A DNA stretch of 64,000 nt from a virus (lineage: Duplodnaviria > Caudoviricetes). Position numbers and translations under genes: made by a program. Shown here in pieces: positions 13,110 through 23,707 of the stretch (its first letter is position 1; every line of letters starts with the position of its first letter). The DNA lies in IMG/VR virus record IMGVR_UViG_3300021255_000123, positions 21,435-85,434 of that record; one strand, 5' to 3'. The notes beneath the pieces were generated by a model. That model saw only the letters and a list, made by a program, of their open reading frames with translations, was not told where the DNA came from and did no database searches.

Positions 13110-13895
13110 ATGGAAACAGGGAATAAAATAAACGAGGAATGGAGGCCGGTTGTCGGCTATGAAGGCATTTATGAGGTGTCTGAATATGGTGATATTGCGT
13201 CGTTGAATTACAACAAAACAGGAGTCAGGAATATTCGTAAGCCAAAAATAACAAAAGACGGGTATCTTGAAATAGCATTATGCAAAGACTCAAAAATGAA
13301 ACATGTTCGTGTTCATAGGGTTGTTGCAATGGCTTTTATTCCAAACCCAAACAATTTACCTCAGATAAATCACAAAGACGAGAATAAGTTAAATAATCAT
13401 GTTGAAAATCTTGAATGGTGTGATTTGAAGTACAATGTGAATTATGGTACGGCAATAGAAAGGCGGTCAAAGAAGATAAGTATTCCTGTTATGCAGATGT
13501 CGTTAGACGGCGATATTATTTCTGAATATGAGTCCGTCAGTGAAGCCGCAAGAAAAGTTGGGTTAAGAACAGGCGACATCGTAAATGTCTGTAATGGGAA
13601 GAATGTTTCTGCTCATGGATATAAGTGGAGATATAAAGACGATTGCTTATTCAGAAAAGCACAAACTCGTAGAAAGAAGGTAGTGGATAAATATACAAGT
13701 AATGGCATTATATGTAGTGTTGACAATATAAAACCTGTTTTGCAATATACACTTGATGGAATTTTTATGGAAGAACATACTAGTATCAGAGCCGCCGAGA
13801 GAAAAACAGGGATAAGACACGATTCGATATGGCAATGTTGTCACAACAAGGTCAATAAAACGCATGGATATATATTCAAATTCAAAGAAATATGA
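13110..13895 (+). mobile_element. Free-standing NUMOD4-HNH-NUMOD1x2 homing endonuclease
   Basis: EEWRPVVGYEGIYEVSEYG (NUMOD4); VHRVVAMAF...INHKDENKLNNHVENLEW (HNH); two NUMOD1 repeats; AT-rich relative to flanks. Confidence 0.92.
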
Positions 13896-15138: not shown

Positions 15139-15169
15139 TTTGCCATATCGGAAATAGTTTGTACTTTTG
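15139..15169 (+). promoter_or_regulatory. Bacteroidota promoter for the tRNA/ncRNA cluster
   Basis: TTTG near 15139-15142 and TACTTTTG at 15162-15169. Confidence 0.8.
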
Positions 15170-15192
15170 CATCGCTTTTGAGACGGAAACGG

Positions 15193-15205
15193 AAAGTTCT
15201 TTCAC
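15193..15205 (+). promoter_or_regulatory. boxA-like site (AAAGTTCTTTCAC)
   Basis: 12/13 identical to the site at 9414-9426 and in the same promoter-proximal position. Confidence 0.55.
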
Positions 15206-15260
15206 TCGAAAGGGTAATATGGCCAGAAGAACGGAGTACGAGAAGTTAAGAAAGCAACTT

Positions 15261-15351
15261 CGCTGAGTAGCTCAGGTATTAGAGCGGTTTGGTAAGTCCG
15301 GAAACGGTGAGTCCAAGCAGGTCATTGGTGAGAAGCCAATCTCGGCGACTA
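15261..15351 (+). ncRNA. tRNA-like RNA with an expanded 22-nt anticodon loop
   Basis: Acceptor CGCTGAG/CTCGGCG; D-stem GCTC/GAGC; anticodon stem GTTTG/CAAGC around a 22-nt loop containing CCG-GAAA-CGG; T-stem ATTGG/CCAAT with non-canonical loop TGAGAAG; 3' ACTA. Confidence 0.7.
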
Positions 15352-15373
15352 GAATCAAAAGAGATTCAGAGAT

Positions 15374-15450
15374 TGTGGGGTCACTGGAGACGGTTCCAGC
15401 CTTGGCTCATAACCAAGTCCACGTCGGTTCGATTCCGACCCCCGCTACCA
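15374..15450 (+). tRNA. tRNA-Met (CAT)
   Basis: Anticodon stem CTTGG/CCAAG with loop CTCATAA; T-arm GTCGG-TTCGATT-CCGAC; encoded ACCA; 1:72 mismatch. Confidence 0.85.
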
Positions 15451-15559
15451 AGCCAAAAGAAGGCAACACAATATAAGCTGAATGTCGGGAAAGTCAGCGA
15501 GGATTGTAAGACAGATTAGGTTCGGTTTCACCAGTCAAGTAAACCATCTTCAACCCCTG

Positions 15560-15590
15560 CAACCCCGACTACGCTGGGGTTGACTTTTTT
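15560..15590 (+). terminator. Rho-independent terminator-like hairpin
   Basis: CAACCCC/GGGGTTG followed by a T run; an alternative 5' arm TCAACCCC lies at 15550-15557. Confidence 0.6.
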
Positions 15591-15591
15591 A

Positions 15592-15860
15592 TATTGGCTG
15601 GTGTTCCACAAGACGAGTAAAGAGAACCCACCCAAAGGAACACGAGAGCCGTAGGGGAGCCAGTACAACACGGCAGCGTAAAGGGAAAGCGAGAGTTGAG
15701 GTGATTCCGCGTACACGACGATGATTGTCGAATAAACACCTCTGCGATTAGCAAACATCGGCGAAATCGCTTGTAAAGTCCGGGACTGACAGGTTCAGCA
15801 GAAGACAATACAAAGTTTTGTTCGCCGGTTGACGGTAAGGGAAACTTTGGTCTGAACCGA
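15592..15860 (+). ncRNA. Unidentified multi-domain structured RNA directly upstream of an HNH gene
   Basis: Stems 15592-99/15658-65, 15601-07/15637-43, 15698-703/15737-42, 15744-49/15765-70, 15792-98/15852-58 and 15811-18/15842-49; no credible ORF. Confidence 0.6.
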
Positions 15861-15900: not shown

Positions 15901-16464
15901 ATGACGATGGATAAAGAAATATGGAAAGATATACATAATTACGAGGGACGGTATCAAGTTAGTAATTATGGGAATGTACGTTCCTTAAATCATAATCAGA
16001 AAGGTGTTGTAAAAGAAATAAAAAAGAGAATTTTACGAGGTTATTATTATGTTAGGTTGCAAAAGAACGGACAAAAAGAAGAGTTTAAGATACACAGATT
16101 AGTATATGCAGCATTTGTAGGAGAATTGCCAGAATGTACATTAAAAGGTGACGGAAATAAAATACTGGTTGTAAACCACAAGGATGAAAATAAACTAAAT
16201 AACCGTGCGGATAATTTGGAACTTTTATCGCATACTCAAAACATAAACTATGGGGAAAATTCAGTTGTAAGGAGTGTGTATCAGTATAGTTTAGACGGTG
16301 TATTGATAAAAACTTGGCGTTCTATGACGGAGGCAGAGTCTGCCGGATTCAGCAAACATGCCATCTGTTTATGCTGTACAGGAAGAATTAAAACACACAA
16401 AGGGTATAAGTGGGTGTATGCTGACAATAAACAAAATCGAAAAGGAAGAAAAAAGACAATATAA
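15901..16464 (+). mobile_element. Free-standing NUMOD4-HNH-NUMOD1 homing endonuclease
   Basis: EIWKDIHNYEGRYQVSNYGNVRS; IHRLV...VNHKDENKLNNRADNLE; C-terminal NUMOD1; AT-rich. Confidence 0.92.
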
Positions 16465-16655
16465 ACCAATAAAACAGACAATTATGAGTAAAATTCTGAA
16501 AATCTCAGCCGGCGTCCGTTATGATGAGGATGCCGGGTCTCTTAACCACCTCAGCACTGGTTGTGCAGGATAAAAAGAGCTTATGGATGGAATGATGAAA
16601 AAATCTCTTCATGTTTTGAACAAAACTTATTGAAAACCATTATAAAACACAAAAT

Positions 16656-20291: not shown

Positions 20292-20819
20292 TTATTGGGG
20301 TTTTTCGATTAAGTTAAACTTTTCCATTGCGGCTTCCTTGTCGAGCTGGTAGCACTCATGTCTGGTGTGGGGGCAGATGAAATCGAATTTCTTTTCGACG
20401 ATAATCATCCTGTTTCGCTTCGACGCCTCAACCTTGAACTTGTCGTTCAACTTGGTTCGGATGTCAACGATTCTGGCATAACCGTCTTTCTTTTCGATAA
20501 CGCCCTTCTCCATATCGCGCTCGATGTCGGCAATCATCTTCGTAAGAGCCGATTTGTTTTCCTCGAAGGTGATGCTTCCGTCATCCTCATCGGTGCTTAT
20601 GGCCCGGATGTAACCCTCTTCTGTCATATATTCTTCCAGCTTACTCCTCAACTCGTCGTTGATATAGTCGCTGTACCCTTCCTGCGTGCCGAACAAGCAC
20701 TGGTAGGCAGTCTTCGTGTCGGAGAACATCTTTGAAAGCAGGATGTATGCTATGTCTCTGACACGGATGCCGTCAGTCTTAAAACGCTCAACTGTGTTTT
20801 TTATTTGTTCATTGTCCAT
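20292..20819 (-). CDS. Helical packaging-operon protein, candidate terminase small subunit
   Basis: 175 aa, helical, between TerL and portal; function inferred from position only. Confidence 0.5.
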   Translation of the reverse strand: MDNEQIKNTVERFKTDGIRVRDIAYILLSKMFSDTKTAYQCLFGTQEGYSDYINDELRSKLEEYMTEEGYIRAISTDEDDGSITFEENKSALTKMIADIERDMEKGVIEKKDGYARIVDIRTKLNDKFKVEASKRNRMIIVEKKFDFICPHTRHECYQLDKEAAMEKFNLIEKPQ

Positions 20820-23511
20820 AACTTATACCAAATTGAGTATCATCATATATATCTACCCTGTTTCCTCTATCTATATCGTCCTGATAGTCTTCCATATCTT
20901 TGCGGCTGTTCTCCAGCTCGTAGCCGTCCGGGATGTCGAGCAGGGGGTACATACGCATTGAGCACGGGTCCATCAGGTCCATCGAGCGGCCTCGACCGAG
21001 GAGCTTGTTCATTTCCTTTTTGGTCATCAGGCGCTTCTTTCCTGATTGAGCATCGACGTAGCGGATGACGCGGGCTTCCTCGATAAATTCCTCCCGGACT
21101 GTGATGTCGGACTTGCGCTTCTCTGCCACGTTGGTGTATAGCTTTCTCGCCACCTCTTCCGAGCATGAGATATATCCGTTCTTTATCAGGTATATCAGTT
21201 TCCCGAAACAACAGTCTTTCAGCTTCACATATTGCAGGGCATTGACTCCCATCGGGGCTTTGTAGCTCTCGTATGGTATGGCCTCCGGGATGTAGTCGTT
21301 GATGTATCTGCCACGGATGCCGTCGAATATAATGTGAGAATAACCGATGTTGTGTTTGTTGGCAAAAGCCTTCATTCTGTTGGCGTTGTCAACAGGCTTA
21401 GTGAACGGAGCTATGTCGATGTCGAAGATATGAAGGCCGTCCCAAGCCAGCTGGAGGAAGTTGTTGGTGCCAAAGTCTGCGAGGTCAGCCGTAATCCACT
21501 TGTCGCCGTTTCTCTGCGGGTCGTTCAGGAATACGCTTGAAGCTTCCTCATAAGTAACCAGATTGTCCTCTTCGTCTTTGGAAGATACATTCCAGTTGCC
21601 CTCCAGCATTTTGGCCGCCTCTGCGCCGCCGGACATGGCGATGGCGCCGATGTAGTCCGGGTTGTTTTCGAGCATATCAAGATTCTCGCTCATTCTGCCG
21701 AGGTAGAATACAAACGAGCGTATCATGTGCGGCCACTTGTCGCGGCCCTTCATAAATCCAAATATGCCGTCCAGCTGTTTGTCGATTGCGTACTTGCATT
21801 GCTCATAGACCTCTTCCTTGCTGTCGCCCCAGACAACCTCATCAACCGTTTTTCCGACGACATAGAAGTATCTGACAACGCCGTCGCGTTCAGGAATGAT
21901 AAGGCCGTCCTCGCCGATGTACCAGTCGATGAACTTGCGAATCCAGCTTTCCCTCTCAGGGTTGGTGGTCGCGAGGCATTTGCCCGGAAATTTTGACTTA
22001 CCACGGTTACGGGTAAGCAGAGTCTTGAAGGCGTCCCAAGTGAACCCTGTCAGCTCGTCGAAATATATCCAGTCGTACTGACTGCTCTTGAAACGACGCA
22101 GGATGGCCTCGACGCTCTGGTCTGCAAGATGAGCAAAGTCTATCCATGAGCCATACGGGGAAGTGAGTCGTGGCATTTCCGACATACGGAGGCTGGTCCA
22201 CTCGCCGTACAATTCTTTGTTGAATGTGTCGATGACACCACCACCACGCTTCAAGTCGTCGATGTTGTTCTTGACGACAAGACCTCGCCAGTTCGGGTCG
22301 AGGATAGGTTCGGCTGTGGCGAGAGCGGCGCCGAATGTGTTGTGAGTTACAGTAAAATCGTTTGTAATGTAAAGTCTGTTAGGATTAGAAACGGTAATAC
22401 AACGCATTTCCGTTGGAGGTAATTTTCTGTACGATATTACACCAAGTTCATCATCACTACCTCCACCGCGATATTTTACTGTTTTTATCCTGTCTCTTTT
22501 TCTTGTTAAATTAAATAACTTGGTGGCGTTTTTTATATTGACAGAAACCCTATAACAGTCCCTACATTCAATAGTTTCGCCATTTTTGGTATATCTACTC
22601 TTTTTTACATGAACAGAAGCCCAACCGCCCAATGAGCGAATAATCCAAACAACATCATCACAAAGTTGCTTGCTGGTTGTATAATACTCTATATTACCTT
22701 TTTCGTCAACTGTACCATCAGTATCGAATAGACCCTGTATAAGTTCATATCTGTCTTCTATGCGAGAAGTTTTATAACATTCTGGAATAAACTTATCATA
22801 AGAATGTTTACCCCACAGTCCTTTTTGTTTGAGTTCTTTTACAACTTCTTTGTCGTAAATATAGTATGTTTTTGGACTAGATGGAATATTGTGAATGTCG
22901 TACCCAATGGATTTGATTTTATCGACTATCTCTTTATCAACCGTTGTAAGTTGAGGCGAATATAACCTTTCAGACAAACATCCATCACCAAGAAGGCATC
23001 CTAATAAATATGGGTGGATGGTTATGCCTTGATTTCGACATCCTTTGGTAAACTCAATAGGTTCACATAGAGGTATAAATAGTTTGTTGTTGTATTTTGA
23101 ATCAAGAATGGATATTACCTTTTCCGTAGTCATAATTTCCCACAGATTTTCTCTATCCATACCTTTTTTATACCATTTCGGTCTCTTTCCAACTCTTCTC
23201 GCTTTCCAAAGATGGTCTAATGCACATTCAATTTTTCTACCATCAGAGAAGGTAAATTCGTAATTTTCCAAGACACCTCTCTCGAAAATTTGAATAACAG
23301 TTTCGTACCCTCCATCCGTACTTGATATTTTATCACCAACTTTAAGGTCTCCCATTTTTCGGAAACCAAAAGGAGTACAAATGGCAGAATATAAAGGCTG
23401 TGCCTTACCGCCTCCAAGCATACCGCCGGAGAAGCAGACATTGACGTTTGTCCGGGCGAAAGCTCGCTGGAAACCCTCGTGTGGACGAATGATTATTTGC
23501 TCTTCTGCCAC
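20809..23511 (-). CDS. terL: Terminase large subunit, intein-containing (probable GTG start VAEEQII)
   Basis: Walker A GGMLGGGK|T split by the intein; Walker B IYFDELT; RNase H-like nuclease TADLADFG and SMDLMD. The track start at 23613 lies upstream of the promoter. Confidence 0.92.
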   Translation of the reverse strand: MAEEQIIIRPHEGFQRAFARTNVNVCFSGGMLGGGKAQPLYSAICTPFGFRKMGDLKVGDKISSTDGGYETVIQIFERGVLENYEFTFSDGRKIECALDHLWKARRVGKRPKWYKKGMDRENLWEIMTTEKVISILDSKYNNKLFIPLCEPIEFTKGCRNQGITIHPYLLGCLLGDGCLSERLYSPQLTTVDKEIVDKIKSIGYDIHNIPSSPKTYYIYDKEVVKELKQKGLWGKHSYDKFIPECYKTSRIEDRYELIQGLFDTDGTVDEKGNIEYYTTSKQLCDDVVWIIRSLGGWASVHVKKSRYTKNGETIECRDCYRVSVNIKNATKLFNLTRKRDRIKTVKYRGGGSDDELGVISYRKLPPTEMRCITVSNPNRLYITNDFTVTHNTFGAALATAEPILDPNWRGLVVKNNIDDLKRGGGVIDTFNKELYGEWTSLRMSEMPRLTSPYGSWIDFAHLADQSVEAILRRFKSSQYDWIYFDELTGFTWDAFKTLLTRNRGKSKFPGKCLATTNPERESWIRKFIDWYIGEDGLIIPERDGVVRYFYVVGKTVDEVVWGDSKEEVYEQCKYAIDKQLDGIFGFMKGRDKWPHMIRSFVFYLGRMSENLDMLENNPDYIGAIAMSGGAEAAKMLEGNWNVSSKDEEDNLVTYEEASSVFLNDPQRNGDKWITADLADFGTNNFLQLAWDGLHIFDIDIAPFTKPVDNANRMKAFANKHNIGYSHIIFDGIRGRYINDYIPEAIPYESYKAPMGVNALQYVKLKDCCFGKLIYLIKNGYISCSEEVARKLYTNVAEKRKSDITVREEFIEEARVIRYVDAQSGKKRLMTKKEMNKLLGRGRSMDLMDPCSMRMYPLLDIPDGYELENSRKDMEDYQDDIDRGNRVDIYDDTQFGISYGQ
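22339..23403 (-). mobile_element. 355-aa class 3 intein with LAGLIDADG homing endonuclease, inserted in the TerL P-loop
   Basis: Starts with Ala (GGGK|AQPL) and ends VTHN|T. WCT triad: ALDHLW, MRCITV, VTHN. LAGLIDADG motifs YLLGCLLGDG and LIQGLFDTDG. AT-rich relative to exteins. Confidence 0.92.
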
Positions 23512-23537
23512 CTTAATTTCTATAATTAAATCCGGTG

Positions 23538-23570
23538 CAAAAGTACGAACATTTTTCAAAATGACAAAAA
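23538..23570 (-). promoter_or_regulatory. Promoter of the packaging operon
   Basis: TACTTTTG on minus (23538-23545) with upstream TTTG elements. Confidence 0.75.
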
Positions 23571-23707
23571 TTTTCTTCAAGCACAACTTTAAATATGGCG
23601 TTTTATTGCCCACAAAACCAACAAAATATAAAAATCATCATAAATTTAATCGCGTTTTAGTCAACGAGTTAAAGTGTTACTTTAAGTAATTGTTGAAAAA
23701 TATTTGG

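Follow-up and report, generated by a model that had tools for sequence, protein, structure and literature searches.

The analyzed sequence encodes an 88-nt RNA that is shaped like a tRNA but is non-decoding and has no usable anticodon loop. It probably imitates tRNA rather than decoding, and we consider it somewhat likely (probability about 0.55) that it is a functional mimic that acts through its acceptor/T half and forms the first cassette of a short non-coding operon. The 64,000-nt stretch, hereafter called the window, is the final 64 kb of an 85,434-bp IMG/VR virus record that bears direct terminal repeats. Its source is an uncultured gut or rumen phage.

Structure of the 88-nt RNA

The Rfam tRNA model (RF00005) aligned to the RNA from end to end in a local scan, scoring 30.4 bits against a gathering threshold of 29. 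When the whole window was searched with default filters, both the 88-nt RNA and the adjacent tRNA(CAU) were missed, and they were recovered only in the local scan. The minimum free energy (MFE) structure, at −32.5 kcal/mol, was a four-arm cloverleaf with a z-score of −2.9, and none of 200 shuffled sequences folded as well. The pairing of all four cloverleaf stems, which the first-pass annotation had read from the sequence, was found by the Rfam alignment and the MFE fold alike. The D stem has 4 bp, and the stem pairs are intact throughout (25/25). The positions of the RNA, of the operon that contains it, and of related cassettes are listed in Table 1.

The yeast tRNA-Phe set of tertiary pairs serves as the yardstick for the class-I core. 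The 88-nt RNA has the same 8-nt D-loop and the same 5-nt variable loop as this tRNA and was numbered accordingly. The interactions U8-A14-A21, A9-A23-U12, G10-C25-G45, C13-G22-G46, G15-C48, G26-A44, G53-C61, and U54-A58 were kept, as was a purine at position 57. The only departures from the core were at 18/55, which are A and G, and at 19/56, which can pair as U-A versus G-C. G55 and A56 replace U55 and C56, as the first-pass annotation had also noticed, and abolish the universal T-loop in this RNA. The earlier statement that the 3′ end lacks CCA also proved correct: A73 is followed by CUA, and CCA is not encoded.

At the place of the 7-nt anticodon loop, 22 nt by the Rfam alignment or 20 nt by the MFE fold lie between the strands of the anticodon stem, in keeping with the 22-nt loop holding a GAAA-capped hairpin that had been described before. 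The pairs of the extended arm had probabilities of > 0.99, and this 24-nt arm is present once in the genome. The internal loop of the arm was compared with the kink-turn, the sarcin-ricin/loop E motif, the 11-nt GAAA receptor, and the 16S decoding site, and fully fitted none of them.

Table 1. Positions of the small-RNA operon and its parts in the window, and of cassettes in related phages (L numbers)
Feature	Position	Strand	Basis or remark
Bacteroidota-type promoter of the small-RNA operon (−33 TTTG, 19-nt spacer, −7 TAnnTTTG)	15139..15169	+	pattern search
Variable leader, including a "boxA-like" word at 15193-15205	15176..15249	+	not homologous in L076, L077, and L079 (~50% identity, many gaps)
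8-nt junction word directly upstream of the cassette	15250..15257	+	conserved; position −1 is U in every copy
tRNA-shaped RNA, tRNA positions 1-73, discriminator A at 15348	15261..15348	+	Rfam 30.4 bits; MFE cloverleaf; copies in L076, L077, and L079; 75-nt allele in L100-L103
Acceptor stem, 7 bp	15261-67 with 15341-47	+	fold
8-nt D-loop, A18 U19 replacing G18 G19	15274..15281	+	sequence reading
Anticodon stem	15287-92 with 15313-18	+	6 bp by MFE; 5 bp by Rfam
Lengthened, sealed anticodon arm	15287..15318	+	6-bp stem, symmetric 5×5 internal loop (15293-97 / 15308-12), 3-bp helix with GAAA cap (15298-15307)
T stem, 5 bp	15324-28 with 15336-40	+	fold
T arm with non-canonical loop U54 G55 A56 G57 A58 A59 G60	15324..15340	+	sequence reading; stem identical in the 75-nt allele
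Spacer starting with CUA	15349..15373	+	sequence reading; only 7 nt and unrelated in L076
tRNA(CAU) with encoded CCA, second cassette	15374..15450	+	ARAGORN; Rfam 37.2 bits
Trailer RNA with intrinsic terminator, constant part of the locus	15451..15592	+	alignment of 9 phage loci
Intrinsic terminator	15560-15592	+	terminator prediction
HNH homing-endonuclease genes	13110-13895 and 15901-16464		on both sides of the small-RNA operon
Cassette: tRNA(CAU) alone	L012, L108, L116
Cassette: tRNA(CAU) body with anticodon AAU	L111 4121-4194
Cassette: 75-nt mimic	L100-L103
Cassette: 88-nt mimic and tRNA(CAU)	window, L076
Cassette: unrelated 71-74-nt tRNA-like RNA	L077 4392-4462; L079 10747-10817; L098 4474-4547; L099	− (L077)
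Cassette: 35-nt minihelix	L098 4590-4624; L099 (same); L109 2430-2464
Cassette: nothing	L106

Absence of a usable anticodon loop

The RNA has no 7-nt anticodon loop with U33 and a purine at position 37, and the G18 G19 and U54 U55 C56 of decoding tRNAs are represented by A18 U19 and U54 G55 A56, with U54-A58 retained. Removal of an insert does not produce a normal loop. If the anticodon stem is taken as 5 bp, a single excision from the 22-nt region, wherever it is made, can give only two 7-mers, each with U at position 37 and a Watson-Crick G32-C38 pair; if the stem is taken as 6 bp, no excision product has U33. A bulge-helix-bulge motif (two 3-nt bulges and a 4-bp helix) could not be fitted, because the 4 nt after the 5′-strand bulge cannot pair with the 4 nt before the 3′-strand stem, and the same failure had been reported in the first-pass annotation. 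In bacteria, no tRNA introns are known other than those of group I, which span about 200 nt or more. Rfam gave no group I intron match in the window, and the insert here would be only 13–15 nt. No RNA ligase, splicing endonuclease, or repair enzyme was found among the approximately 40 proteins scanned, the annotation of which was non-exhaustive.

ARAGORN labeled 15261-15349 as a class II tRNA-Leu(AAG). This assignment was rejected: the fold drawn by ARAGORN has an energy of −16.8 kcal/mol versus −29.9 kcal/mol for the extended-arm fold, about 13 kcal/mol worse, and it contains G·A and G·U mismatches, with both the anticodon stem and the variable arm mismatched. ARAGORN run with the tmRNA search reported no tmRNA, and a local Rfam scan with E-values up to 10, which covers YrlA/bacterial Y RNA and the other tRNA-like families, returned only tRNA at this place. 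The earlier proposal of an anticodon-less tRNA mimic remodeled by expansion, instead of an intron-bearing tRNA, is supported by the failure to fit a bulge-helix-bulge, the lack of a canonical loop after excision, the preserved core, and the second allele described below, which is anticodon-less as well.

Copies and a second allele of the 88-nt RNA

A pattern scan of metagenome contigs keyed on the loops found three copies of the RNA, two of them identical to that of the window (L076 and L077, 88/88) and one with a single change (L079, 87/88) at position 47, which has no tertiary contact. L077 and L079 are near-identical to each other over the whole operon. Comparison of L076 with the window gave 100% identity for the 88-nt RNA versus 69% for tRNA(CAU), 60% for the trailer, and 69% for the terminator, with an unrelated leader, and the conserved block matched cloverleaf positions 1-73 exactly. 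Our first reading of this perfect identity, as the product of purifying selection alone, was weakened by a sliding comparison with L076, which gave a mosaic of blocks with 63–92% identity and blocks with about 99% identity. The identity of the L076 copy may therefore be due in part to recombination, besides selection. Downstream of the operon, a non-coding block (window 16526-16634; L076 1849-2230) is 97–100% identical between the two, versus 63–92% for genes of the same contigs, and is another strongly conserved or freshly exchanged element.

The clade carrying the 88-nt RNA is narrow. None of 64 loci around related portal genes contained it, and pattern scans of IMG/VR outside the near relatives, built on its loops, its elbow, or its body, returned no genuine copy. 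A scan of IMG/VR for the trailer start found only the L012 contig and two chance matches. BLAST against 50,697 GenBank phage records gave chance matches only, and the prokaryote species genomes searched gave seven chance matches and no copy. The RNA is missing from most relatives, from the rest of IMG/VR, and from the species genomes, and is therefore dispensable.

Further contigs were reached through homologues of the 81-aa ORF upstream. Four of them, all from ENA, carry a 75-nt allele, which scored 58.7 bits with the single-sequence model. Its acceptor, D, and T stems, variable loop, and discriminator are identical to those of the window RNA. In its anticodon stem, four of the six pairs are changed on both sides and one on one side, with 100% pairing, and the stem closes on a loop of 4–6 nt, without an anticodon loop. 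The T-loop of the 75-nt allele has the G55 common to both alleles together with C56, for which a G in its longer D-loop is a suitably located partner. Pair 19-56 therefore covaries between the alleles (G-C versus U-A), in what is a single comparison of two alleles, the 88-nt one being nearly invariant. In the shorter allele, CCA is encoded directly after the RNA. The two alleles show the features of a working class, not a curated family, that we termed "natural tRNA-scaffold/top-half mimic": an intact tRNA body in which a structure that differs between alleles takes the place of the anticodon end.

The true tRNA nearest to the mimic is the tRNA(CAU) of the L012-type cassette, which scored 44–46 bits with model R2 and also has G55. 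The T-loop of this tRNA (L012 14319-14395, minus strand) is without U54, U55, and A58.

Organization of the small-RNA operon

The locus has a fixed frame consisting of a promoter, a variable leader, the 8-nt junction word, one to three cassettes, and a conserved trailer, with CCA as its first letters and the terminator at its end. The presence of a promoter ahead of the RNA, claimed in the first-pass annotation, was supported by the recurrence of the promoter block in the genomes of relatives, with 95–98% identity in L076, L077, and L079; the promoter pattern had four matches in the window versus 0.86 expected. The boxA reported at the same time was not supported by conservation, as the word lies in a leader segment that is unconserved in the three other copies of the operon.

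The trailer of about 110–140 nt, with the terminator at its end, is conserved in all phages of the group (for example, L012 14180-14322, minus strand; L106 4366-4501; L108 4216-4363). Outside the terminator, it is mostly the primary sequence that is conserved. In L106, the trailer is present without any cassette before it, and it appears to be the small-RNA gene that stays constant at this locus.

The 88-nt RNA is one of several cassettes of a swappable slot; the others include true tRNAs, a further tRNA-like RNA, and minihelices ending in CCA. The junction word precedes different cassettes in the window, L076, L077, L079, L100, L109, and L111. In L012, the same promoter is followed directly by tRNA(CAU). 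The RNA following the 88-nt RNA in the window had been called a normal tRNA-Met; a tRNA(CAU) is indeed encoded there, but it is not fully normal, as U1 and U72 are mismatched and its D stem is preceded by an additional base. The spacer between the two RNAs may derive from a decayed trailer start or from the leader of L108-type tRNA cassettes, which match it equally well.

The 71–74-nt tRNA-like RNA, which precedes either the 88-nt mimic or the minihelix, has a canonical T arm with an aberrant D region and loop. Downstream of this RNA comes a small hairpin, the 7-nt loop of which resembles the odd T-loop of the 88-nt mimic. The 35-nt cassette is a natural tRNA acceptor/T-arm minihelix. It forms a 12-bp helix capped by GAAA, in which a 7-bp acceptor-like stem is stacked on a helix of 5–6 bp, and it ends in a single unpaired base plus CCA; its z-score is about −5, and its two versions differ by a compensatory change in the inner stem. 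The cassettes have in common an acceptor stem with a discriminator, usually with CCA, and an anticodon half that is variable or missing; the mimic therefore appears to work through its acceptor/T half.

Genome context and host

The window encodes a portal protein, a large terminase, HNH endonucleases, RecT, and replication proteins. The contigs of the relatives derive from gut, rumen, and bioreactor assemblies. The promoters of the window are of the Bacteroidota type (TTTG, 19 nt, TAnnTTTG), which indicates a bacterial host. Under genetic code 11, the large ORFs of the window are unbroken, and a suppressor tRNA is therefore not needed. The ORFs neighboring the 88-nt RNA have no known domains, and no candidate partner protein was found.

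The region around the small-RNA operon is an insertion hot spot. Near the spot of the HNH genes, L097, L108, L112, L116, and L117 hold a PAPS-reductase-family gene instead, and L098 holds an IS605 OrfB/TnpB gene (1242-2438).

Several other features of the window were recorded. The large terminase ORF, of 934 aa (20809-23613, minus strand), also matches helicase-loader and primase-type P-loop families in its N-terminal half, which suggests a fusion or an inserted element. Two more tandem tRNA-like RNAs, with canonical T arms and abnormal anticodon regions, lie at 60755-60922 (minus strand), and the relatives G004 and G005 have tRNA-like RNAs of 82–83 nt whose central regions are abnormal in a similar way (L081 1501-1583, minus strand; L082 1501-1582). 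About 2 kb from the tRNA-like genes at 60.8 kb, near RecT, is a gene for a hydrolase with the metallo-β-lactamase fold (Pfam Lactamase_B_2; 57908-58669, minus strand). RNase Z has the same fold, and a nuclease of the recombination module is just as likely.

Proposed role and alternative explanations

If the RNA is a functional mimic, its transcript would be cut out like a tRNA, by RNase P on the 5′ side, where the U at −1 lies, and by a 3′ endonuclease after A73, and CCA would be added afterwards by a host enzyme. The product would fold into the L-shape, with U19-A56 holding the elbow in place of G19-C56. Its anticodon end, closed into a helix that exceeds a normal arm by about nine layers, would block entry into decoding. 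Action would proceed through the acceptor/T-arm half, which is invariant between the alleles and is imitated also by the minihelix cassettes of relatives, and the RNA would take the place of a tRNA on a tRNA-binding factor. This factor would most likely be a host enzyme or a defense toxin that reads or modifies the acceptor end, and the lengthened arm may supply a second binding surface.

Several steps of this scheme have precedents. Bacterial cells still process a tRNA with a replaced anticodon arm and keep it stable (PMC3401473), and RNase P acts on a wide range of tRNA-like substrates (PMC11143913). The established defense effectors include host toxins that check the acceptor stem and modify the CCA end (10.1101/2024.07.05.602228; 10.1101/2021.04.30.441581; PMC9712102; PMC10435456), and phage tRNA genes counter host defenses directed at tRNA (PMC11555353; PMC10802454). 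A decoy role of the 88-nt RNA is plausible on these grounds. A broader and rather doubtful extension would be that the operon leader is a slot for interchangeable "top-half" tRNA decoys, namely sealed cloverleaves and 12-bp CCA minihelices, which would soak up acceptor-end toxins (toxSAS, MenT-like, or similar) or be modified by them instead of host tRNAs.

Among the alternatives, it is possible, albeit unlikely, that the RNA is a functionless remnant, a tRNA cassette with ruined anticodon and T-loops that hitch-hikes by recombination at the hot spot. The absence of the RNA from most relatives and its narrow clade, the loss of the universal U55 and C56, the unencoded CCA, and the empty slot of L106 would all be expected of such a remnant, and mosaic exchange can yield high identity between contigs. 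However, the 25 stem pairs and nine tertiary contacts are intact, and pair 19-56 is re-paired instead of broken. The replaced loop is an ordered, GAAA-capped helix; the second allele has the same body with a covaried arm that is also sealed; and the sole substitution among the four copies falls at the non-interacting position 47.

It is less probable that the RNA has no role beyond serving in cis, as a tRNA-shaped handle that recruits RNase P and 3′ enzymes to cut and stabilize the other RNAs of the operon, tRNA(CAU) and the trailer. Such a handle would suit an RNA embedded in a polycistronic non-coding operon in which the trailer starts directly after the CCA of the preceding cassette, whichever that is, and the broad substrate range of RNase P (PMC11143913) would allow it. 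Against it, L012, L108, and L116 have the same arrangement of tRNA and trailer without the 88-nt RNA, the trailer of L106 has no cassette at all, and in the window the cassette abutting the trailer is tRNA(CAU), not the 88-nt RNA. The ordered, conserved arm extension and the re-paired elbow would also be left unexplained.

We regard as very improbable a feature at the DNA level, in which the site is a target for recombination or for a homing endonuclease at the cassette hot spot, with the RNA fold arising only by chance. The HNH genes that flank the operon (13110-13895, 15901-16464), the delimitation of cassettes by the junction word and the conserved trailer start, and the mosaic pattern of identity point in this direction, but there is no need for a DNA site to match a tRNA in nine tertiary positions and 25 pairs, the conserved block coincides exactly with cloverleaf positions 1-73, and the covariation of stems between the alleles is a signal at the RNA level.

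Hardly any weight can be given to a real decoding tRNA, either a class II tRNA-Leu(AAG) or a tRNA from which a 13–15-nt insert is spliced out: the ARAGORN label and the two 7-nt words flanking the hairpin, each holding U and then a Leu-type triplet, favor it, but the labeled fold, about 13 kcal/mol poorer, has mismatches in both its anticodon stem and its variable arm, the D arm and 5-nt variable loop are those of class I, each single excision gives U37 with G32-C38 or a loop without U33, no bulge-helix-bulge can be fitted, the promoters point to a bacterial host, where only group I introns would be expected and Rfam detects none, RNA ligase and splicing endonuclease are absent among the scanned proteins, the 75-nt allele also has no anticodon loop, and the ORFs, intact under code 11, need no suppressor.

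Comparison with known systems

The 88-nt RNA shares with class I tRNA (RF00005) the cloverleaf, the acceptor, D, and T stems of 7, 4, and 5 bp, the 5-nt variable loop, the core tertiary pairs, and transcription beside a tRNA. It differs in having no 7-nt anticodon loop, U33, or R37, in its A18 U19 and G55 A56, and in its unencoded CCA. Archaeal and eukaryal pre-tRNAs with introns also have extra anticodon-loop nucleotides in an extended helix; in contrast to them, the 88-nt RNA has no bulge-helix-bulge and gives no canonical loop on excision, its host is bacterial, and the insert-free second allele is still anticodon-less.

The T-even phages encode RNA C and RNA D in the T4 tRNA cluster; these are 120–140 nt long and are not complete cloverleaves. 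Reportedly, tRNA-like molecules were catalogued in J Biol Chem in 1978 (cited in PMC11143913). The T4 RNAs resemble the 88-nt RNA in being phage-encoded, co-transcribed with tRNAs, tRNA-like at their ends, and non-decoding, whereas the 88-nt RNA is a complete cloverleaf; this comparison is one of descriptions. To our knowledge, no function has been assigned to non-decoding tRNA look-alikes of phages since the T4 stable RNAs.

The tRNA-like RNAs of gammaherpesvirus MHV68 and mascRNA, which are of viral or cellular origin, likewise have the shape of a tRNA and play no part in translation. RNase P or RNase Z processes them, and they are linked to a downstream small RNA, but they are eukaryotic, driven by Pol III, and unrelated in sequence, and the local Rfam scan gave no match to them.

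The engineered "tRNA scaffold" RNAs (Ponchon and Dardel 2007) carry a hairpin in place of the anticodon stem-loop and, according to PMC3401473, are processed and stable like tRNAs. Both they and the 88-nt RNA display a structured hairpin at the anticodon stem-loop of an otherwise complete tRNA body. Unlike the scaffolds, the 88-nt RNA is natural and phage-encoded, its elbow is altered, and the displayed hairpin is short.

Implications

The 88-nt RNA is a natural counterpart of the engineered tRNA scaffold, and its predicted fold would provide a tRNA elbow held by U19-A56, as opposed to the near-universal G19-C56. One slot that holds a true tRNA, sealed cloverleaves, or bare minihelices in close relatives constitutes a compact natural experiment. 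Its contents point to the acceptor half as the working part, and cassette-swap experiments would be straightforward. If the slot does hold decoys, they would represent an RNA-based anti-defense strategy, in which the altered elbow and the lengthened arm would keep the decoys off the ribosome.
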